Source of the DNA: a virus
DNA length: 64,000 bases
Virus record (IMG/VR): IMGVR_UViG_3300048580_000372
Coordinates: 9,801 to 73,800 of that record
Strand: one strand, 5' to 3'
Shown here: positions 1-55,392 of the stretch, piece by piece
Position numbering within the stretch: position 1 is the stretch's first letter
How the letters are laid out: each line of letters opens with the position of its first letter
The notes under the pieces: generated by a model
Seen by the model: only the letters and a program-made list of their open reading frames with translations
Databases searched by the model: none
What the model was told of the DNA's origin: nothing
Program-made: the position numbers and the translations under genes

Positions 1-68
1 TCTTCACCAGTGGTGATTTTCATTGTAACGATATCATTAGCATCGATAGTTCTTTTTTGTATTAGCAT
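1..68 (-). CDS. Partial small protein (MLIQKRTIDANDIVTMKITTGEE...), possibly Sm-like; runs off the window
   Basis: ATG at 68 with GAGGA SD; frame open to position 1. Confidence 0.6.
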   Translation of the reverse strand, partial: MLIQKRTIDANDIVTMKITTGE

Positions 69-162
69 GTTTTATCCTCTTTTAAAGTTCTGTATTTATT
101 TATATTGAAATTTTCTTCTTTGTATTATTATTTAGATTAAAAATTAACTCTATAGTTAATAA

Positions 163-187
163 AAAGGGTGGGATAAACCCACCCTTT
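163..187 (-). terminator. Intrinsic terminator after the dUTPase C-half
   Basis: AAAGGGTGGG-ATAAA-CCCACCCTTT perfect stem with T-run. Confidence 0.8.
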
Positions 188-479
188 ATTTTGTCCCTGT
201 GGAACCAAACCCACCTGAACCTCGTTTTGTCTCTGTAACTTCATTAGCCATAATAAAGTGTGCTTGGACAACAGGTGAAATAACACCTTGGGCAATTCTC
301 ATCCCACGTTCAACTGTGAATGTTTTTTGTGAAGTGTTATGAAGAATAACTTTTACCAAGCCACGATAATCACAATTATGCAGTATAGTATTTTCGATTA
401 TATAATTACTATTGTTTTCAACAGTCAAATCATATACTGGCATTTTACCCAACGATGTTATATTTTTAATTTTTTTCAT
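186..479 (-). CDS. dut: Split-intein C fragment (35 aa) fused to dUTPase C-terminal half
   Basis: Intein block F VYDLTV and block G ILHN/C, then dUTPase motifs CDYRG, RIAQG and RGSGGFGSTG. Confidence 0.93.
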   Translation of the reverse strand: MKKIKNITSLGKMPVYDLTVENNSNYIIENTILHNCDYRGLVKVILHNTSQKTFTVERGMRIAQGVISPVVQAHFIMANEVTETKRGSGGFGSTGTK

Positions 480-1366
480 TATTTTTTCTCCAAAAATGTT
501 AATATTTCTTTTTTCAATTCATCTCGTTTTTCTTTCCAATCATGTTCCCATATTATTAAAACATCATAACCTTTTGATTTCAAAAAAGTCAATCTATTTT
601 CATCATCTTGCCATTTTTGTTCTGCTGTTATACCCAAACTTTCATTGATTTCTAAAGGTTCAAATAATGTTGGAGAACAATGCCAATAACTACCATAAAA
701 TTCTATAATCTTATTATCGACTGTAATATCTGGTATATAAAAATTATTATTATCATTGTAAGTTATAGTATTATGCTGAATCGGTTCAAATGATTTTTCC
801 ACCAAAAAAGAAATTATTTCTTTTTCGCCATTGGATACTTGTGTTACTTTAAATTTAGCACACTGTTCAGAACAATATTTTCTTTTAGCCCATTTTGGGG
901 CAACAAAGTCTTTTTTACAAGTTGGACAATTTAAATGATCTCTTCTTGATTCATCATGACATTCTACCGAACAAAAACGAACCCCTTCTTTTTCTCTATA
1001 ACGGTGTGTTAAAAATTCCTTTTTACAATGTTCACACACTTTTAAAACCATAGTAGATTCTGGAATTTTATATAAAACACCTTGATTATTTTTATTGTAT
1101 TCACCATAACATTTACTCGAACAGAATTTTTGTTTCTCCATTTGGATACTACAACCTTTTCTATCCCGTATATCATAAATTTGGTTACAATTTAAACATA
1201 CTTTTTTTCTATCTTTTCTCAATGGGTTTTTATCTGATGCCAACCATTTGGACATACAATCAATATTACAAAAACGATGCTTTGTCCTTTCAAGTCTACA
1301 TTTAGTTGTTGTTATTATATTTTGACAATAATCACAATTTATTTCAATATTATGTTTTTTACACAT
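479..1366 (-). CDS. Free-standing Vsr-like (EDxHD-type) homing endonuclease with repeated zinc ribbons
   Basis: Several CxxC...FCSxxC repeats; C-terminal PDI...IEFYGSYWH...D..R...GYDVLIIWE; lies between the split dUTPase halves; ATG 1366 with GAGGT SD. Confidence 0.85.
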   Translation of the reverse strand: MCKKHNIEINCDYCQNIITTTKCRLERTKHRFCNIDCMSKWLASDKNPLRKDRKKVCLNCNQIYDIRDRKGCSIQMEKQKFCSSKCYGEYNKNNQGVLYKIPESTMVLKVCEHCKKEFLTHRYREKEGVRFCSVECHDESRRDHLNCPTCKKDFVAPKWAKRKYCSEQCAKFKVTQVSNGEKEIISFLVEKSFEPIQHNTITYNDNNNFYIPDITVDNKIIEFYGSYWHCSPTLFEPLEINESLGITAEQKWQDDENRLTFLKSKGYDVLIIWEHDWKEKRDELKKEILTFLEKK

Positions 1367-1376
1367 ACTCAATACC

Positions 1377-1916
1377 TCAAATAATATTATCCTTTTCTGT
1401 TAATTCATTGGCTTGTTTCCAACCATTTTCTGTTAAAATTAATTGTGTATCTGTACAAACAATTTCGGTGCCATCATCAAATTCAATTTTAACAACCTCC
1501 TTTTCCCCAACTTCCCAAATTTTTAAAACTTCATCTCGTTCATATTCTTTAGTGTTGGTATTATAAGATAAAATTGTTGTTTTATTTTCAATAAAATCTT
1601 CAATTGTTTTATCACCTTCTACAGTTTTAATTTTCATAAATGATGGCACACAATCAACAGTACCTGGCGAATTTAAAACTGTTATCCCATTTTTAGCAGC
1701 CAAACCAGAACGAGGACGAACTTGGAGTTCAAACCCTTCTGGAATTTCAAAAATCAATCCAGTATTGATTAATTCTGTACAACCTGGATTAATAATAATA
1801 TCATCTGTAATTGCAGCACGAAAATCAAAACCTGCAGCACCAGAAGTTTCATACTGTGGTAGTTCCAAACCATCAAAATCATCAGTTGGAATTATATTAA
1901 CATTCACTTTATTCAT
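1377..1916 (-). CDS. dut: dUTPase N-terminal half (88 aa) fused to split-intein N fragment (91 aa)
   Basis: dUTPase motifs AAGFD, RPRSGLA and PGTVD, then intein Cys1 ([10 protein letters not shown]...[12 protein letters not shown]). Confidence 0.93.
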
Positions 1917-1953
1917 TGTAGTTCTCCTTTTTAAATTATTTTATACTATAACA

Positions 1954-2133
1954 TTAATACTTTCTTCTATTCAATAAATTAATATTTTTCTGAATTTTTT
2001 CTACCATCAATAATCCATCGAGCCATTCTGAATAAATAAAATCAATAGTGTCAGATTTTTTCTGATTAATAATCATTTGTTTTTCCAAATCTTCTTTTAA
2101 TATTTTGATCATATCTTGTTTGTAATTTGACAT
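1954..2133 (-). CDS. Hypothetical protein
   Basis: ORF with GGAGG SD before MSNYK. Confidence 0.55.
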   Translation of the reverse strand: MSNYKQDMIKILKEDLEKQMIINQKKSDTIDFIYSEWLDGLLMVEKIQKNINLLNRRKY

Positions 2134-2163
2134 TTTAATGCCCTCCATATATAAATATAATTG

Positions 2164-2238
2164 TATAAGAAAGAAAAAGTGGATACCTCCATTTTCACTG
2201 GAACAAAGTGGTGATAGACTTTGTTCCTCTTTCTTATA
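2164..2238. other. Intergenic three-way-junction structured element
   Basis: 11-bp closing stem 2164-2174/2228-2238 enclosing two hairpins, one a perfect 10-bp GGAACAAAGT/ACTTTGTTCC stem. Confidence 0.55.
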
Positions 2239-2270
2239 TACTTATTTATCTAAATGGCGAAAAAAGTGCC

Positions 2271-2528
2271 TCAAATAGATAAAAAAATCGTCTTTTTTAA
2301 TCTATATTTTTCCTTGTTTTTCTTGCTGATTTCTTCTTTATGGATTTCTTTATAATTTTTTGACGCCTGATTTATGGATTCAATGTTCCGAATAGACGAT
2401 TCTTTTTGGCATTCCAAACAAGCACCACTGGAAGTATATCTATCTGATAAGTGCCCATTTCGACAAGGCTTACCTGTATTATACTTGTCCAGTCCCTGTG
2501 CCTTCGCTTCTCTTCTTTTCATCTTCAT
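2271..2528 (-). CDS. Small zinc-binding protein resembling the N-terminal module of phage HNH endonucleases, with no nuclease domain
   Basis: KYNTGKPCRNGH...RYTSSGACLEC motif. Confidence 0.55.
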   Translation of the reverse strand: MKMKRREAKAQGLDKYNTGKPCRNGHLSDRYTSSGACLECQKESSIRNIESINQASKNYKEIHKEEISKKNKEKYRLKKTIFLSI

Positions 2529-2685
2529 CCTTTTTCTTTTTGGAAATATCAGCCAATTTCTTTTCTTTAGATATTTCTGCTTTGCGGTCTTTATCCAATT
2601 TTTCTTGCCTGTTTTTAACCAATTGTTTTTTGGACAACTTTATCTGTTGTTCTGTGTCTTCATTGACTATTTCATGCCATCTCAT
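2479..2685 (-). CDS. Small basic protein with leader MRWHEIVNE (putative internal head protein)
   Basis: Leader matches the window-wide N-terminal tag. Confidence 0.5.
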   Translation of the reverse strand: MRWHEIVNEDTEQQIKLSKKQLVKNRQEKLDKDRKAEISKEKKLADISKKKKDEDEKKRSEGTGTGQV

Positions 2686-2722
2686 AATTTGATACCTCTT
2701 ATAATACAATTGTATTTAGCAT

Positions 2723-3292
2723 TTATCGAATGATTCTAAATCCCAAGCTATTTTCAATTGGCGATTTTTGTTGTGGTTCTTCTTCTGAAGTAGTCAATCT
2801 GTGTTTTTGATTTAAATACTTTTGATTATAATCATAATATTCACTATTGTTCATTGTACCTATATAGTTGCATGAATCCAATAAATTTCTTAATGATTGT
2901 TCATTTTTTACTCTAAATCTGTGGGAACCAACCATTATTTCTGTTCCCCAAACAATAAAAGTGGTCTTGTCTTCAATAACGAAATTCAATTTAGTCAACC
3001 CTTTTACCGTCATATCATTTCCACAATATTCATACACTGTGCCTGTTTGTTGGGGGACTGTTGTATTGGTAACTGTATAATCCAATGGACTGACAATTTG
3101 ATCTTCTTTTTCTTGGGACCACACAAAATTATTTTTCTTCAAATTCAAAAAATGTTCTCTTATCCACTTTGGTGCATCAAAGTTTTCTATTTCTTTAATT
3201 GTCTTGTGTTCCAATCTTGTAAAGAATAAATATTGTTCTGGTTTTTTCTTTAAACAACTTATAAAATATTGCCCAGACTTTGTATCCCTCAT
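2723..3292 (-). CDS. Hypothetical protein
   Basis: 189-aa ORF coupled to the upstream ORF. Confidence 0.7.
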   Translation of the reverse strand: MRDTKSGQYFISCLKKKPEQYLFFTRLEHKTIKEIENFDAPKWIREHFLNLKKNNFVWSQEKEDQIVSPLDYTVTNTTVPQQTGTVYEYCGNDMTVKGLTKLNFVIEDKTTFIVWGTEIMVGSHRFRVKNEQSLRNLLDSCNYIGTMNNSEYYDYNQKYLNQKHRLTTSEEEPQQKSPIENSLGFRIIR

Positions 3293-3756
3293 TTGATTTT
3301 GAATCCTTTTTTATTTTTGACAAAAATATCCTTTACAATATACAATTCATTTGCTGATTCTTTATTTAAATCAATAATTTCATTTCTTGAATAATTCATT
3401 AACCATCTATTATCAACTATTAATACCATGAAGATTTCTTGTTCGGTTAATGTTTGTACTAATTTTAACTGTAGATTACCATCATTCCATTTTTTATCAT
3501 TTGATAAAACAAGGGTCCAGTACATCATTAACGCCAAGGTGGATTTTGAATAAGTATCTTCTTCAATGATTTCCCAAGGAGTCCGCCATGTTTCTGGTTT
3601 TTCGTAATCCAAGCACCACATAATTAATCCAACTTTTTCCCAAAATTGTTGAACCGATAATAGGGTATTTTGATTGTTGTCTTTATCCGCTATTTCTTCA
3701 CGGAATTCTTTCCACCGATGGCGTTTGTCGTGCCCACTTAATAAATTAAAATTCAT
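3289..3756 (-). CDS. Hypothetical protein (WRTPWE motif, possibly degenerate transglutaminase-like)
   Basis: 155-aa ORF, AAGGA SD, TATAAATA upstream at 3791-3798. Confidence 0.65.
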   Translation of the reverse strand: MNFNLLSGHDKRHRWKEFREEIADKDNNQNTLLSVQQFWEKVGLIMWCLDYEKPETWRTPWEIIEEDTYSKSTLALMMYWTLVLSNDKKWNDGNLQLKLVQTLTEQEIFMVLIVDNRWLMNYSRNEIIDLNKESANELYIVKDIFVKNKKGFKIK

Positions 3757-3836
3757 AATTGTTTTCCTTTCTTATATGAATATTATCATCTATTTATAGG
3801 TATTAAATCAATATTAAATATTTTTTATTTAAAATA

Positions 3837-4493
3837 TTATCCAAATGGGTCGATGATAACTGGAACATTATCATTTCTAATCATAATATTTTGTTCATGA
3901 AGATCAAACTGAAACTGTCCAACATTTTTTTCAACAATAGTTAATGCTTTTTTAAAATCTGGATATTGTTGTTCAAATTCTAACGATTTATTTTTAATAA
4001 TTTTATTAAATTCTCGTTCATTATAATTTTTTTTGATTTTATCTCTCCAATCCAATAAAATGAATCTCCAACATAAACCACCACCATGTTTGGTAGTCCA
4101 ATTGGTAATCATCCAAGATGCAATTTGTATTTCCAAATCTTTATTGGTTTTCAATGGTTGAAGTTTTTCCATATAACTAATGAAATATTCTTTGCCACAC
4201 AGATCATATTTAATAATTCTTGAAACTTTTAAAAAATGTTGATTATTATAGTTGGTACATAATTCGGCATAATGCAACCAACTAACATCAGTTTTTAACG
4301 CAATTTTTAAAACAGAATTCATACCCGATTTATTATAAACTCTTGAATAGTACCCTTTCCCAATTAATTTATATCCTTTATTTTTTAAAAAAGAATCAAT
4401 AAAATTTTGTTTTTTATTTATATTACTATCAACAGAACACAATCCTTTCTCTAATGATAAATTATTTGGGTATTTTAATTCATTAATTATCAT
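3837..4493 (-). CDS. Protein-kinase-like enzyme
   Basis: Gly-loop IGKGYYSRVY, VLKIA lysine, DLHEQNIM catalytic loop, VIIDP. Confidence 0.8.
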   Translation of the reverse strand: MIINELKYPNNLSLEKGLCSVDSNINKKQNFIDSFLKNKGYKLIGKGYYSRVYNKSGMNSVLKIALKTDVSWLHYAELCTNYNNQHFLKVSRIIKYDLCGKEYFISYMEKLQPLKTNKDLEIQIASWMITNWTTKHGGGLCWRFILLDWRDKIKKNYNEREFNKIIKNKSLEFEQQYPDFKKALTIVEKNVGQFQFDLHEQNIMIRNDNVPVIIDPFG

Positions 4494-4502
4494 ATTAATT
4501 CC

Positions 4503-6611
4503 TTACTGTGTTGTGCCATCCCAATAACTGGTTGTATACTTGAATATACCTGTACCAGGATTCGGCAAATCGCTTGATTTATATTGCAACTTCACAGTAT
4601 TACCAGATGCATCATATTGTACATTAAATAACACACCAGTTCCATATGGATATGGTATCAAGGATGTATCAGGTCCAGTTTCAACGAAATCATCTGTCCA
4701 GTTTGTACCATCTTGATGTCCGGTCGTGATAATCTTCAAAGTGCCCATTCTAAATCTTGTGGCACCAGATGCTGAATCACTTCTCCATACACTATAATCC
4801 AATATAATGCAATTTTGTACACCTGTGTTAAATGATATGGCTGGAACAAAGTCAGTCCAAACACTTCTATTGTTTTGAATGGTTATACCAGCGGAAGTAC
4901 TTAATGCAGCACCAGAACCATTAAATGCAGAACTTGATGATGAATATGCACCATCATAAGCATTAATGATAACATTCAAATCCCCAGCAGTGTGTGTCAC
5001 ACGCAATAATGGTAAATTACCTTCATAACTGAATATGTCGGAAATACTTGTGCAACCACTAACTTTCTTATCAAAGAATATAGCTGGAACATTTGGTGTT
5101 GGTGGTGTTACAGGTGGTAATCCACCAGTTAATGGATTAGCAAATCCAATATTTTCAAAAGTATTGAATGAACTCACATGTCCATAATATATAACATTAC
5201 CATCATCATTTGGTTCACTTCTACTAATATAGATAGCACTGTCTTTGATATTACCAAAACGATTGTGTGTCATTTTGAAATTTTTTGGTCCTTCATTATA
5301 TGCACTTGATGAAGTGTTATAATCTAATGGTGTCAAATTTGAATTCATCGTCAATGGGCTTTGGTTCAAATTAACAGCACGATAAAGAGTATCAAATTTA
5401 CAAGACATTATTATAACTTCATTAACGTTATCTGTGACATTGAATGCATAAGTGGAGTTTTTAAACACACAGCCTGTGAATGAAAAATTTTCAGATCTGG
5501 CAACATTACCTGTTGCATAACTATCAATCAACACCCCAATAGTATCCCTTCTTGGAATATATTTTTCACCATTAGTCAATTTATGGTATTCTGGTGGATC
5601 TGTGGTAATCATATTGGAACGTTGCCAAGAACGGAAATGAGCAGGTTTTCCATTCCATTGTAGTCTAACAGTTGGGTCTAAATTGGATGCACCATTGACA
5701 AAATTATCATAAGCAGTATAGGCTGCATTTGTCCAGTTGGCTTCAAATGAACAATTGGTAACATCAACGTTGGCAGAATAAATCAACTTCAATACCGCGA
5801 AATCTTCTTGTGGAGATTGACGCAACATATCATTTTGTTCAAACCCCAAATAAACAAAGGTAATACCATACAGGGAAAGATTTTCAATTCTAACAGAGGT
5901 AGAAGTGATATTACTAAAAAGAACTTCTAATTCTGGAACATCATAATTGTGCCCAGCAGCTAAAACTTTTTCCCAATCCCATTCATCAACATCAGATATA
6001 CTCATAGCCGGAATGGTTCTTGCGACTGTGTAACAGTTTGGATCAGTCATAAAAATAACTGTCTTGTTGATACCATCACCAATCCATGTTGAATTTGGTG
6101 GAATAATTAATGGGCGGGATATTTTATAAAATCCAGCTGGAAAATATAATGCACGTTTTTCCGGTACACCAGGACGAGTAACATCAACTGCAGCTTTACG
6201 AATAGCAGTTGTATCGTCAACCCCAATGGTAGTCACAGGATCATAATTACCAACAGCACCATATGATTTGATTGAAACACTTTCGTCCAATTTTTCTTGT
6301 AAGAATTGATAATAATCCGAATTACCACGATTAGATAATGGTGTTGGAAATTCTGGGTTTTGGGTATCACGATAGTTATAATTATAACGTGTCAATGCAG
6401 CGACAGGTGTTAACTCAGTCAATACTTCAACGTTGTGTGGATCAGATTTGGTTCTTGGGGCAGAAATGTTGTTGTCATAATTTGGTGAACCAACGAATAA
6501 ACGAGCACTATCTGTGGTGAAACCCATCTCACCTTCTTGAAGAAGAACTTTGTTAATGTTTTCATCTAAACCTCTTCTTAACTTTATTCTACTAATTTGT
6601 GTTACAGCCAT
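4503..6611 (-). CDS. Virion/baseplate-tailspike protein with pectate-lyase-like beta-helix
   Basis: N-terminal RIKLRRG...LQEGEMGFTTDSARLFVG anchor; SIKSYGAVG...DDTTAIRKA...LYFPAGFYKIS signature; late promoter upstream. Confidence 0.8.
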   Translation of the reverse strand: MAVTQISRIKLRRGLDENINKVLLQEGEMGFTTDSARLFVGSPNYDNNISAPRTKSDPHNVEVLTELTPVAALTRYNYNYRDTQNPEFPTPLSNRGNSDYYQFLQEKLDESVSIKSYGAVGNYDPVTTIGVDDTTAIRKAAVDVTRPGVPEKRALYFPAGFYKISRPLIIPPNSTWIGDGINKTVIFMTDPNCYTVARTIPAMSISDVDEWDWEKVLAAGHNYDVPELEVLFSNITSTSVRIENLSLYGITFVYLGFEQNDMLRQSPQEDFAVLKLIYSANVDVTNCSFEANWTNAAYTAYDNFVNGASNLDPTVRLQWNGKPAHFRSWQRSNMITTDPPEYHKLTNGEKYIPRRDTIGVLIDSYATGNVARSENFSFTGCVFKNSTYAFNVTDNVNEVIIMSCKFDTLYRAVNLNQSPLTMNSNLTPLDYNTSSSAYNEGPKNFKMTHNRFGNIKDSAIYISRSEPNDDGNVIYYGHVSSFNTFENIGFANPLTGGLPPVTPPTPNVPAIFFDKKVSGCTSISDIFSYEGNLPLLRVTHTAGDLNVIINAYDGAYSSSSSAFNGSGAALSTSAGITIQNNRSVWTDFVPAISFNTGVQNCIILDYSVWRSDSASGATRFRMGTLKIITTGHQDGTNWTDDFVETGPDTSLIPYPYGTGVLFNVQYDASGNTVKLQYKSSDLPNPGTGIFKYTTSYWDGTTQ

Positions 6612-50115: not shown

Positions 50116-51456
50116 ATGAACAATATTATTTATCATAACATAAGAGAACAAGAAAAGAAAAAATTAGAATTTTGGAATAATTATTTAAAAGATAATGGAT
50201 ATACTTTAATCTCTGCAGATTATCGTGGAAATGGAGTTATAATACTTAGTTTTTCAGACTCAACTGGGATAATATATAGTAGAAAAATATCAAGATTAAA
50301 AACAATTGGTTTACAAAATTTAACACCAAAAAGTAATAAACCAAAAACCAAAAATATTATAGGTGACGAATATTTTGAAATAATTAAAAACATTGCCAAA
50401 TCAAGAGGTGGTAAAATAATATCAAATGGTTATAAAAATAGTGGAACAAAAATAGAATGTGAAGACATTGCAGGTAATCATTTTTGGATGTCACCAGAAT
50501 GCATAAAACGAGGTAGTTGGAGTCCATATGAAAAAAACACTTGTGAACATATATGCAGACAGATATTTGAATATATATTCAATTGTAAATTTATTATAAC
50601 AAATAAAATTGTTGTTAGACAAGGGAAGGTCAATCTCCAATTAGATGGGTATAATGATAATGTTATAATAAACAATAAATCTTATAAAATAGCATTTGAA
50701 TATCAAGGTTATTATTCACACAGAACCGACCAAAATGCCATCGAACGAGATAATTATAAAAAAGAATATTGTAAAAATAATAATATTGTTTTATTTGTAA
50801 TTGATGAATTTTCAAAACATCTACTCGATGATAACTGGATATTTTCATATATAAAAAATATGATAGTTGAACAATTTCCAGAAATTAATATAAATTACGA
50901 TTTTAAAATAAGATACGACCTTATAAATTCAAATATTATTAAATACAATTATTGGAAAAATAAAGCAGAACAAGACGGATTCACATTAATAAGCGAAACA
51001 TATATCAATTGTGGCAATAAAATGATATGGAAAAGAAACAGCGATGGTTATATTTTCAAACGAAGCATTGACAACATACTACAAAATGGTTGGCCACCAA
51101 ACAACAATATATCAAAAGGAAAACTATTAACAAAAACTGAATTATTAAATAGAATACAAAATAAATGTCAACAATATGGTGGAAAACTTTTAGACACAGA
51201 ATGGAAGGGAGACCGCACAAAACATAAATTCCTTGATGTTTTGGGAAACGAATTTGAATCAATGCCATGCAATGTTTTTCATAAAAACAGTTGGTCACCA
51301 TATGAAACAAACCGCTATTGTACTATTCACAAAGAAAATAATATGTTATATATAACAACAAAAAATAACACAGAGTTATGTTATGATATATCCAATGAAA
51401 AAATATTAAAATATGTGAAATATCCAACAGGAGAGATTAAATATTTCTCCTGCTGA
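50116..51456 (+). CDS. Free-standing putative homing endonuclease with repeated DNA-binding modules
   Basis: Repeats GG.LL...Y...K......GN.F...P......WSP; LQLDGY...IAFEYQG nuclease core; GATAAATA at 50042. Confidence 0.7.
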   Translation: MNNIIYHNIREQEKKKLEFWNNYLKDNGYTLISADYRGNGVIILSFSDSTGIIYSRKISRLKTIGLQNLTPKSNKPKTKNIIGDEYFEIIKNIAKSRGGKIISNGYKNSGTKIECEDIAGNHFWMSPECIKRGSWSPYEKNTCEHICRQIFEYIFNCKFIITNKIVVRQGKVNLQLDGYNDNVIINNKSYKIAFEYQGYYSHRTDQNAIERDNYKKEYCKNNNIVLFVIDEFSKHLLDDNWIFSYIKNMIVEQFPEININYDFKIRYDLINSNIIKYNYWKNKAEQDGFTLISETYINCGNKMIWKRNSDGYIFKRSIDNILQNGWPPNNNISKGKLLTKTELLNRIQNKCQQYGGKLLDTEWKGDRTKHKFLDVLGNEFESMPCNVFHKNSWSPYETNRYCTIHKENNMLYITTKNNTELCYDISNEKILKYVKYPTGEIKYFSC

Positions 51457-52561: not shown

Positions 52562-53404
52562 TTAACGGTACTCAACCTTCGTCACTGTGTATGGATACTT
52601 AGCTTCGTCATAAAACTTCTTTCTTTCAGATAAGTGTTTCTTGGAGTATTTAGTAGATGCAGTAATATCAAAAATGTTCGCGAAGTCTTTATCACTCGAC
52701 ATTCTAATACTTCTACCAATACTTTGAATAACCTTGATAAAACTTTTACCAGCTTCAACCATAACCAAATTAAATATTCGAGGAATATTAATACCAGTGC
52801 TACAAGTACCAAATGTTGCAATCAAAATTTCATTATTCGAATTATTAACTTCTTCAAAATGCTCCCTGCGTTTTTTATTCTTTGTGGCACCTTGAATAAA
52901 GATAGTATCTTTGGTTATATATTCAACCAACTTTTCACCTGTTTCAATTCTATCAATTAAAACCAAAGTATTCCCTGTATTGGACACTTCTTCAATAAAA
53001 TTAGCCAACCAACGAACCCTTGTTTCATCTGTAACCAAGAACCTATATTCGTCTGCATATTCTTTATAAGAAACATGGTCTTTAGTTTGAATAATATCAA
53101 TATGCAAATTAGCCAACACACCTTGGTCCTGCAATTCATGAGCTTTCAACGTATTAACAATTGGACCAATACAAAACAACAAACACAAAGAATCTATTTC
53201 ATCTTTTGGAATTGTTCCTGTAAATCCCCAACGAATTGGAATATTGGCAAATGGACCAGTCAAAAGTTCTTGCAATTTATCTGCTTTTGTGGTGTGACAA
53301 TTGGCGACAATAGCATCATCAACTATATAATTGTGATCATTTTTAATATGAAGATTATACACCTCATTTGGCTTTTCTATTTCTTTTCTTTTTACAAGCT
53401 TCAT
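52562..53404 (-). CDS. uvsW: Split-intein C fragment (35 aa) fused to UvsW helicase C-terminal half
   Basis: VYNLHI...HNYIV...IVAN/C, then H of DECH, GFTGT, STGINIP and QSIGRSIR. Confidence 0.92.
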   Translation of the reverse strand: MKLVKRKEIEKPNEVYNLHIKNDHNYIVDDAIVANCHTTKADKLQELLTGPFANIPIRWGFTGTIPKDEIDSLCLLFCIGPIVNTLKAHELQDQGVLANLHIDIIQTKDHVSYKEYADEYRFLVTDETRVRWLANFIEEVSNTGNTLVLIDRIETGEKLVEYITKDTIFIQGATKNKKRREHFEEVNNSNNEILIATFGTCSTGINIPRIFNLVMVEAGKSFIKVIQSIGRSIRMSSDKDFANIFDITASTKYSKKHLSERKKFYDEAKYPYTVTKVEYR

Positions 53405-54308
53405 AACATTTCTCCAATTTTTTAACTGTTTCTAACTCTAATTCATTTAATCTAAAATTATACCAATTATCATAAATCCAATCTTCATCTATAACACTAT
53501 AGCAGTAACCATTGGTTAAACACCAATTTAATAATGCTGTTTCTTTGATTTTTTCTTTAATTCTTGTTTGATGGATTTTTGGCTTAATTTCGTACACCAT
53601 TTTTGTATCATGATTTATAAAATCAACTATATAAACCTTTGTTTTTCCATCAAGTTCATATTTGATTCTCAATGTTTCATAATCACAACCTTCATTTATA
53701 TGGACAAATGCAGCTTCCCAACTTGAACGATATTTTTGTCCTTTATAAACTGTTGTCATATGGGTATTACTATTATGAATATTTGGGGTGAACTTACCAT
53801 CTGCAATCAATTCTTTCATACATTCTGATTTTTGTTCACGTTCTTCTTCTGAATAAACAGTTCCAAACATTGGATTTCTATCACCAATTTTAGATTCACT
53901 TATTTTTTTAACAGATTCATTTGTTTCTTTAGTTAGCCCTTTATTCCAAGCGGTAACTACCCCAACTGTTCCTGTATGCCAAGGAACCCCTGTGTTCAAA
54001 TTTAATTTAATTTTATCACCATGTTGTTGTTGACACGCAATACCACCTTTTTTAGCTGTTAATGTTATAATTAATTGTTCTGTTTTTTCACGTTCTTGTT
54101 TATCTGTTGAATACAACGAATCAATAAAATTTATTAACACGCCATGTTCAATTCTTCTTTTAAAAGTGTTTATTTCAACAGGAGTATTCAATTGGACACC
54201 ATTATTGAAACACAATTTTTCACTATCCCAAATATCAATTTTTAAACTATAATTTTCCAATAGTTCATTGTATTGTTGCAACATCTCTAATTTAGTTCTT
54301 CGTATCAT
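53364..54308 (-). CDS. Free-standing homing endonuclease (NUMOD3 plus TnsA-like PD-(D/E)XK)
   Basis: AWNKGLTKE, NPMFG; YRSSWE...YIVDF...EIKP; lies between the split UvsW halves. Confidence 0.8.
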   Translation of the reverse strand: MIRRTKLEMLQQYNELLENYSLKIDIWDSEKLCFNNGVQLNTPVEINTFKRRIEHGVLINFIDSLYSTDKQEREKTEQLIITLTAKKGGIACQQQHGDKIKLNLNTGVPWHTGTVGVVTAWNKGLTKETNESVKKISESKIGDRNPMFGTVYSEEEREQKSECMKELIADGKFTPNIHNSNTHMTTVYKGQKYRSSWEAAFVHINEGCDYETLRIKYELDGKTKVYIVDFINHDTKMVYEIKPKIHQTRIKEKIKETALLNWCLTNGYCYSVIDEDWIYDNWYNFRLNELELETVKKLEKCYEACKKKRNRKAK

Positions 54309-54342
54309 AATTTTTCCCCTTTAACAGTATGAACCTATATAC

Positions 54343-55392
54343 TTATTTATCATTTACTGACAAAATAGTGTCATTTTCTGTCAATTCATCAGCACGTTTC
54401 CACCCATTATTAGTTAAAAATTTATGATTCCCAGTTACTTTTATTATCTTTCCATTATCAAATTCCAATTCGTACATTTTTTCTGTTTGACTGTTTACCA
54501 TATTCTTATAAACATCAACCACAATATCTTCTTTAAAAGATTTATTTTCTTCATTATAATTGATGACAATATCACCTATATTAACATTCTTTATTTCTTT
54601 ATATCCTTCAGGTGTTAATACCAATGATTCCCCATCAAAACATTCATCACACAGCACCATAGACACGTCATCCAAAAATTCATGGATATCATCATCTGTC
54701 AATAACCCAGTTTTTTTATTGGCTGTTCTTGCAGACAAAGCATTCAGGGATTGCCAAGTACAAATAGTATGGGTTTTGTTCAATTCCTTCCTATCCCCAT
54801 AAAACACCCCAACATCCAACCCAAGAACTTTATAATCATCCTCTGTTTGTGTCACAAGGGTTTTACTTGGAACAATAACAATGGTTCTTCCCATTGGCTC
54901 ACACACCATTGAAAGAGCTGCACTGGTAATGGTCTTACCAGAACCTGTGGAAAGACATTGAACGCTTTGTGGATTTTCTAAAAATTTCGCAACAGCTTCT
55001 TCTTGGTAATCACGAAGAATAATTGGTTTTCCTGCATCTGGGTGTCCAATTGGCCAATTCTTACTTGCAAGTTTAGCTTTTACCTCATCAAACGATGGAA
55101 AGGAAACATTCCAATTGTTCCGATGGTCAACAACATCAATGTCAAACCCATCTTCTTCAAGGATTGGTAAAATCCTATCAAGAAGATTTAAATAGGTTAC
55201 CATCCCAATACTACAATATGATTTCTTACCATTCCAACGCCCAAGTTTATATGCTGGTAAATGATAGGCATATGGTACCATATATTCACAACGTTCAACT
55301 ATACGTTTACGGGTCTTTAAATAATCAGACAACCCTTCAATTTTGATATTTACTTCGTCTCTGATAACAATAGTGGCTTTTTTATGTTGCAT
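54343..55392 (-). CDS. uvsW: UvsW helicase N-terminal half (250 aa) fused to split-intein N fragment (99 aa)
   Basis: LRDYQ, STGSGKT, TWQSL, VLCDE, then CFDGES...TGNHKFLT..GW. Confidence 0.92.
   Translation of the reverse strand: MQHKKATIVIRDEVNIKIEGLSDYLKTRKRIVERCEYMVPYAYHLPAYKLGRWNGKKSYCSIGMVTYLNLLDRILPILEEDGFDIDVVDHRNNWNVSFPSFDEVKAKLASKNWPIGHPDAGKPIILRDYQEEAVAKFLENPQSVQCLSTGSGKTITSAALSMVCEPMGRTIVIVPSKTLVTQTEDDYKVLGLDVGVFYGDRKELNKTHTICTWQSLNALSARTANKKTGLLTDDDIHEFLDDVSMVLCDECFDGESLVLTPEGYKEIKNVNIGDIVINYNEENKSFKEDIVVDVYKNMVNSQTEKMYELEFDNGKIIKVTGNHKFLTNNGWKRADELTENDTILSVNDK

Follow-up and report, generated by a model that had tools for sequence, protein, structure and literature searches.

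A dUTPase gene carried by an uncultured lake-water phage is probably fractured by a mobile split-intein cassette that sits within the codons of motif III and is removed at the protein level by trans-splicing. The gene lies in the 64,000-nucleotide (nt) stretch that we analyzed, hereafter the window, which comes from the IMG/VR record IMGVR_UViG_3300048580_000372, a metagenome assembly. Three tightly packed minus-strand genes occupy positions 186–1916. They encode, in order, the N-terminal half of dUTPase fused to an N-terminal intein half (IntN), a nuclease, and a C-terminal intein half (IntC) fused to the C-terminal half of dUTPase. A first-pass annotation, made from the sequence alone, had proposed a naturally split intein in motif III with an endonuclease gene between its halves, and its junctions are correct to the residue. 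The N-gene reads ...PGTVD↓CVPSF, where the arrow marks the splice junction and Cys89 follows GTVD, and the C-gene reads ...ILHN↓CDYRG. With an IntN of 91 amino acids (aa) and an IntC of 35 aa, as the annotation had stated, the joined exteins comprise exactly 150 aa, and motif III becomes GTVDCDYRG.

The joined product contains the five dUTPase motifs in order (AGFD, RPRSG, GTVD↓CDYRG, RIAQ, and RGSGGFGSTG) and aligns without gaps, at 71% identity, to P0004, an uninterrupted dUTPase of 150 aa in the protein collection. The halves are exactly complementary, because the NCBIfam dut model NF001862 breaks at position 88: the N-extein matches positions 2–88 of 150 (E = 1e-28), and the C-extein matches positions 88–149 of 150 (E = 6e-22). 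The trimeric dUTPase model PF00692 matches both halves, with E = 6.5e-14 for the C-extein, and phrog_135 also matches the N-extein. The insertion point falls in the enzyme’s most conserved 20 residues, TVLNSPGT(V/I)D↓xDYRGE. The +1 Cys replaces the usual Ser or Ala and occurs naturally at this position in 27 of 203 intact dUTPases sampled. The joined product is predicted to hydrolyze dUTP.

The N- and C-genes share one reading frame, and the nuclease gene occupies another, with its own start and ribosome-binding site. Read-through of the N-gene TGA would meet a TAA five codons on, and Rfam gives no match to a group I or group II intron. Because of these three observations, namely the shifted frame of the nuclease, the second stop, and the lack of an Rfam intron match, the dUTPase gene is truly in pieces.

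In the mechanism that we propose, a single transcript would carry all three genes, and the acidic IntN would pair with IntC (net charges in Table 1) to form a HINT fold. Trans-splicing would proceed through an acyl shift at Cys1, transesterification to the +1 Cys, and cyclization of the terminal Asn, helped by the penultimate His. The first of these steps would have to take place without the usual block B histidine, which is Gln in this intein. Splicing would join Asp88 to Cys and free a 150-aa dUTPase that trimerizes. Since the catalytic Asp carries the intein directly, dUTPase activity would be expected only after splicing. The endonuclease presumably cleaves dUTPase alleles that lack the intein in co-infecting phages, and repair would then copy in the whole cassette.

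Relatives of the fractured dUTPase

The arrangement recurs in many other phages. A word-indexed search returned ten diverged N-halves that share the junction, as well as one that is 96% identical to the N-half of the window. A profile search run exhaustively against 1.84 billion cluster representatives yielded 187 matches at E ≤ 1e-30, and some 65 of the top 150, each standing for a cluster at 50% identity, span the dUTPase N-part and IntN with the lengths expected of split halves. IMG/VR contributes 23 loci, on contigs 4 to 309 kb long, that carry the N-half, an open reading frame (ORF) of ~295–360 aa, and IntC with the C-half. The insertion site, GT(V/I)D↓C, is common to the ~65 protein clusters and the 23 viral contigs. 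Recurrence of the layout in 23 independent viral contigs excludes a chance arrangement.

Two unrelated types of nuclease fill the same gap. A Vsr-like enzyme pairs with inteins that begin CV..., as in the window, L008/L009, and L018, whereas all other loci pair inteins beginning CF... with a TnsA-like/PD-(D/E)xK enzyme that bears a ROS/MucR-like zinc finger. In several TnsA-type loci (L010, L012–L017, L024, L025, L027, and L028), a free Vsr-like homologue is located ~2.5 kb upstream of the N-half, outside the inteins (e.g., L012:2541–2837). The traits specific to the window are its Vsr/EDxHD nuclease subtype, a TxTQ block B that it shares with protein P0166, and a second fractured gene, encoding an SF2 helicase.

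P0166 (293 aa, from two Logan contigs) is the only contiguous form found. It is a dUTPase with a contiguous mini-intein at the same site, and an 8-residue linker stands exactly at the IntN/IntC break of the window. The AlphaFold model of this intein has predicted local distance difference test (pLDDT) values of 73–92 and template modeling (TM) scores of 0.63–0.73 to the Npu DnaE, Ssp DnaB, DnaX, NrdJ-1, and gp41-1 inteins; the extein part of the model is poor. A HINT fold is predicted for the dUTPase intein. P0166 also lends indirect support to splicing of this intein subtype, because its ~140 extra residues in motif III must leave for the enzyme to function.

Two relatives carry altered genes. 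In L008 (5521–6307) and L009 (5541–6327), the Vsr-like endonuclease is frameshifted, leaving a 201-aa ORF with the rest in another frame, and IntN and IntC are intact; these loci look like a decaying homing endonuclease in a retained split intein. In L020 (3349–3615), the C-half ends before motif V, giving a 52-aa C-extein, which may reflect decay of the host gene or faulty assembly.

Searches of deposited and cellular sequences did not return the arrangement. Among 50,697 deposited phage records (INPHARED), none has it, and none covers at least 80% of the N-half. Rhizobium-phage matches that extend to residue 156 are intact dUTPases aligned by chance through the intein. A megablast search with window positions 1–6000 returned nothing. 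When 185,579 cellular species genomes were searched, none of the best 80 of 597 matches reached into the intein, though one pattern spanned the junction. A metagenome scan with the N-half recovered intact dUTPases only, with matches stopping at residue 88–89. In the collections searched, the dUTPase split-intein arrangement is confined to uncultured phages.

Intein halves and block B

Intein models recognize both halves. PF14890 matches IntN (E = 7.6e-8) and, over positions 121–155, IntC (E = 2.5e-6), with each half alone below the gathering score. TIGR01445 matches the N-gene from residue 89 on, and TIGR01443 scores 22.4 bits on IntC against a cut-off of 15.6. A profile of the IntN family matches the Ssp DnaB, DnaX, and NrdJ-1 inteins (E = 1e-9 to 1e-7), with their TxxH aligned to the block B column. 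Together with the break of NF001862 at position 88, these matches bear out the split intein in motif III that the first-pass annotation had described.

The residues that carry out splicing in class-1 inteins are present at both junctions. Cys1 and the −1 Asp are each found in 51 of 51 cluster representatives, and block G provides the penultimate His, the terminal Asn, and the +1 Cys, with the HN↓C ending conserved in the C-halves of all 11 distinct relatives. Block B departs from the class-1 pattern, a point absent from the first-pass annotation. The column that aligns with the His of TANH in Ssp DnaB, of TGNH in DnaX, and of TGNH in a helicase intein of the same window contains Gln here. Across the 51 cluster representatives, it holds K in 23, T in 18, Q in 6, E in 2, S in 1, and H in 1. 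The sole representative with a canonical TGNH is P0153, which is perhaps ancestral or perhaps a separate intein at the same site. The block B His is essential in many inteins, and just “a very small subset” is known to dispense with it (PMC6333167). Because the His is typical yet not universal, the element is classed as a non-canonical intein rather than a canonical class-1 intein.

The missing His raises the question of whether the intein halves can no longer perform the first catalytic step and act as docking domains only, holding the dUTPase fragments together non-covalently. Its absence across the family would fit such a role, for which a precedent exists: Aeh1 NrdA, an endonuclease-fractured phage gene product, reportedly reassembles non-covalently through interaction domains (PMC3045599). 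However, four residues (Cys1, penultimate His, terminal Asn, and +1 Cys) do not vary among clusters that share only 30–50% identity, and docking alone would require none of them. As the intein is attached to the catalytic Asp, within motif III, the active site of an unspliced complex should be obstructed. In addition, P0166 would keep ~140 extra residues in motif III unless spliced. Docking without splicing is therefore improbable, and trans-splicing remains the preferred reading.

Nuclease, selection, and cassette mobility

By sequence profile and predicted structure, the middle gene encodes a member of the EDxHD (Vsr-like) homing endonuclease family, in agreement with the zinc-ribbon/Vsr-like endonuclease named in the first-pass annotation. 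Matches of the single sequence are weak (MTES_1575, DUF559, and TIGR00632 Vsr, all E ~1e-3). A profile built from 12 homologues and compared with the PDB matches the DUF559 structure 3hrl at 1.2e-5 and Escherichia coli Vsr 1cw0 at 3.9e-5; the three Vsr structures 1cw0, 1vsr, and 1odg fall between 4e-5 and 9e-5, and the catalytic domain of I-Bth0305I (3r3p) is matched at 0.0096. The AlphaFold model of the nuclease has a mean pLDDT of 85.8, and 1cw0, 1vsr, and 3r3p occupy ranks 1–3 in a Foldseek search with it. D213, E222, H229, D255, and E274 are invariant in the 12 homologues. The first four align to the PDF, FWH, and ERD segments of Vsr, corresponding to its catalytic Asp51, His69, and Asp97 plus the family’s extra Glu. 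The zinc-ribbon region is modeled as short β-hairpin/helix modules, and these N-terminal ~170 residues presumably constitute the DNA-binding part.

Selection was examined in pairs of TnsA-type relative loci by the Nei–Gojobori method. Ratios of nonsynonymous to synonymous substitution rates (dN/dS) are 0.08–0.22 for the intein halves, 0.09–0.22 for the exteins, and 0.10–0.29 for the endonuclease. Purifying selection acts on both intein halves and on the nuclease in these relatives. In the closer pairs, dS is 0.46–0.89 for the intein and nuclease versus 1.3–2.4 for the exteins. The same contrast is seen when L019 is compared with L020/L023: nucleotide identity is 45–70% in the flanks and exteins and 80–92% inside the cassette, with the high-identity stretch of L019 running from ~50 nt before the N-junction to the C-junction. 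The cassette is mobile in the relatives, because IntN, nuclease, and IntC are far more alike than the flanking dUTPase DNA. The identity pattern is what a cassette moving between diverged phages with short co-conversion tracts should look like. In a tree of exteins, the fractured dUTPases are scattered among intact ones with weak support, so that independent invasions are not countable.

These data also bear on whether the dUTPase has been inactivated by a selfish cassette, with the two halves persisting as decaying, functionless remnants. Decay does occur in relatives, in the frameshifted endonuclease of L008/L009 and in the C-extein of L020 that stops short of motif V, and no second dUTPase gene is present in the record, though the record is only about 24% complete. 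In the window, however, both halves are open, all five motifs are intact, and the ribosome-binding sites and terminator have been kept. The extein dN/dS values given above for the relatives, and the persistence of the arrangement across many diverged phages, are likewise not what is expected of a dead gene. We regard inactivation as still less probable than docking. There is next to no chance that sequencing errors, assembly errors, or gene calling broke a contiguous intein with an embedded endonuclease domain, although the record is a metagenome assembly: the endonuclease has its own start and ribosome-binding site in a frame different from that of both halves, the end position of IntN is constant in the 51 cluster representatives (89–100 aa), each of the three genes is matched in part, at 0–6 differences, by short contigs of four further lake metagenomes, and no intron ribozyme is present.

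Several observations weigh against a functional, trans-spliced, and mobile element. Chief among them is block B, where Gln replaces the His of the TxxH motif. The missing His leaves the first splicing step unproven for the dUTPase-intein clade and is the main reason that splicing is called probable and not stronger. The selection and mobility data come from the sister subgroup with the TnsA-like endonuclease, not from the Vsr-type subgroup of the window. In the nearest relative, the N-half (P0001) is 96% identical and the endonuclease (P0276, compared with window positions 482–1366) is 71% identical, so that the nuclease gene is evolving far more quickly than the adjoining intein and extein; because of this difference, constraint on the endonuclease of the window may be relaxed, with its catalytic residues intact. 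The four other lake metagenomes, which provide short contigs only, contain no intein-less allele and no contig that bridges a deletion of the intein or endonuclease. No RNA run containing the locus is listed. Nevertheless, the invariance of the junction nucleophiles, the strength of purifying selection, and the existence of a contiguous form speak for splicing of the clade through a compensating route of some kind.

Locus organization and known systems

The features of the locus are collected in Table 1. The middle ORF is open from a TTG at 1372 (479–1372), and an ATG at 1366 is preceded by GAGG at a distance of 9 nt. The ATG is the likelier start and would give a protein of 295 aa. This GAGG overlaps the TGA stop of the N-gene, placing the nuclease start 10 nt past that stop, and the TAA stop of the nuclease overlaps the ATG of the C-gene (TAATG). 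Because the genes are tightly packed, each has a ribosome-binding site, and one terminator follows them, a single transcript with coupled translation is the likeliest reading. The promoter candidate comes from a consensus scan in which such matches are no commoner than in shuffled sequence, and its position is its sole support. For the terminator-like hairpin, the scan gives 163–187, and the minus-strand reading gives the coordinates in the table.

Table 1. Features of the fractured dUTPase locus in window coordinates
Feature	Position	Strand	Description
N-gene	1377-1916	-	179 aa; 88-aa dUTPase N-part and 91-aa IntN
Middle nuclease gene	479-1366	-	295 aa; zinc ribbons and Vsr-like domain
C-gene	186-479	-	97 aa; 35-aa IntC and dUTPase C-part
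dUTPase N-extein	1653-1916	-	88 aa; motifs I, II, and first half of III; final residue is the catalytic Asp (GTVD)
IntN	1377-1652	-	91 aa and TGA stop; Cys1; block B T-D-T-Q; net charge -10
Endonuclease, N-terminal part	857-1366	-	~170 aa; repeated Cys-rich zinc-ribbon modules; phrog_1271, phrog_2308
Endonuclease, C-terminal Vsr-like (EDxHD) domain	479-856	-	profile and Foldseek matches
IntC	375-479	-	35 aa; block F VYDLTV; block G ends His-Asn; net charge +1
dUTPase C-extein	186-374	-	62 aa and stop; +1 Cys, CDYRG, motif IV RIAQ, motif V RGSGGFGSTG
Shine-Dalgarno GGAG	1924-1927	-	7 nt 5' of the N-gene ATG; read from sequence
Sigma-70-like promoter candidate	1945-1974	-	TTGAAT, 18-nt spacer, TG, TATAGT; 29 nt upstream of the N-gene start
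Terminator-like hairpin	161-185	-	GGGTGGG, TTTAT loop, CCCACCC, then TTTTT; directly 3' of the C-gene stop

The second fractured gene of the window, at 52562–55392 on the minus strand, encodes an SF2/UvsW-like helicase split in its DExH motif (...VLCDE↓CFDGE...). Its IntN (99 aa) has a canonical TGNH and is 33% identical to the dUTPase IntN, and its IntC (35 aa) ends AN↓C, without the penultimate His. A gene for a NUMOD3 and restriction-fold endonuclease lies between the halves at 53364–54308. Elsewhere in the window, a 446-aa ORF on the plus strand (50116–51456) matches the HNH endonuclease family phrog_559 (E = 4e-14) and is likely a mobile nuclease. Most large ORFs of the phage genome match no PHROG family. 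One lake-metagenome contig joins window position 1212 to 2283 through 33 unrelated letters (depth 12); it would delete the N-half and the start of the endonuclease, and it may instead represent another locus with similar zinc-ribbon sequence.

The layout belongs to a kind described in 2009, as the first-pass annotation had recognized. Fractured genes of this kind were reported for gp41-1, gp41-8, NrdJ-1, NrdA-2, IMPDH-1, DnaE, ligase, and terminase, with IntN of 88–105 aa, IntC of 33–54 aa, and a Vsr-like endonuclease in half of the loci (Dassa et al. 2009, PMC2677866). The three features that define a fractured gene are all present here: complementary ORFs on the same strand, intein halves at the break, and a free-standing endonuclease gene. 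As in those loci, an N-extein with IntN, an endonuclease gene on the same strand, and IntC with a C-extein follow one another. The intein halves are of similar size, the split falls in the loop where endonucleases usually insert, and a DNA-metabolism enzyme of a phage has been invaded. However, dUTPase is absent from the eight host types of that study, whose inteins possess the full set of five catalytic residues, block B His included, and the endonuclease gene of the window has no intergenic control region of its own.

We found no paper on a dUTPase-hosted intein, with InBase and subscription journals lying beyond our search, and the papers examined that contain both terms use them unrelatedly. 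The first-pass view of dUTPase as an unusual host stands. As a refinement of the first-pass reading, the element is not a one-off and belongs to a large, phage-only family. It departs from the layout known since 2009 in its dUTPase host, its missing block B His, and a nuclease gene without separate control elements.

The nuclease resembles I-Bth0305I (PDB 3r3p; Taylor et al. 2011, PMC3239194), an enzyme of a recA group I intron and the prototype of the EDxHD (Vsr-like) homing endonucleases. EDxHD is the name that Taylor et al. gave to the Vsr-like family present in half of the Dassa et al. loci. Both are multidomain mobile-element nucleases of phages with an N-terminal DNA-binding part and a C-terminal Vsr-fold domain, for which the Foldseek TM score normalized to 3r3p is 0.77–0.78. 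Unlike I-Bth0305I, the window enzyme lies between split-intein halves in a dUTPase and has repeated zinc ribbons at its N-terminus; its cleavage activity and target are putative.

Natural inteins that lack the block B His are known among the orthologues of the Tko CDC21-1 intein (cited in Friedel et al. 2018, PMC6333167). The dUTPase inteins are likewise maintained without this His; in the Tko CDC21-1 case, a compensating residue is thought to stabilize the tetrahedral intermediate. The Tko CDC21-1 inteins are contiguous and archaeal, with a bulky Leu at −1, whereas the dUTPase family is split, phage-borne, and much larger, with an invariant −1 Asp and K, T, or Q in the His column. The primary paper on the Tko CDC21-1 inteins is reportedly that of Tori and co-workers in Biochemistry in 2012.

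Like the Ssp/Npu DnaE split intein, which has a basic IntC and splices in trans, the dUTPase intein is of class-1 type at its junctions, with Cys1, a +1 Cys, and an acidic IntN. The DnaE halves, in contrast, are encoded at distant genomic sites without an intervening endonuclease gene and have a canonical TxxH. The IntN family profile matches DnaE inteins at E ~4e-4 to 5e-3, weaker than its matches to DnaB and DnaX. In the Aeh1 nrdA/mobE system (PMC3045599), a phage nucleotide-metabolism gene is likewise reported to be split by a free-standing homing endonuclease gene and rescued after translation. The NrdA fragments reportedly reassemble non-covalently without an intein, whereas both dUTPase halves carry intein parts with intact splice-junction residues.

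Our analysis places dUTPase, broken at its catalytic Asp, among the few enzymes known to be fractured by split inteins. At this one insertion site, several stages of the 2009 gene-breaking model can be seen: the mini-intein is contiguous in one form, other forms are fractured and carry endonucleases of either of two unrelated families, and in one fractured form the endonuclease is decaying. The half-genes are currently labeled “dUTPase”, “intein/homing endonuclease”, “hypothetical protein”, and “G:T mismatch repair endonuclease”. Small split inteins for protein engineering (91 + 35 aa) could perhaps be drawn from this family, whose dozens of diverged natural members without the block B His form a comparative set for catalysis of the first splicing step. 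We tentatively raise the possibility, which we hold to be less likely than its opposite, that the split inteins of dUTPase form a large natural clade with a different catalytic solution for that step. If so, activation of the N-junction may depend on the extein itself or on dUTPase folding or trimerization. Splicing would then be conditional, and the split-intein family would be mechanistically new and possibly orthogonal to existing ones.

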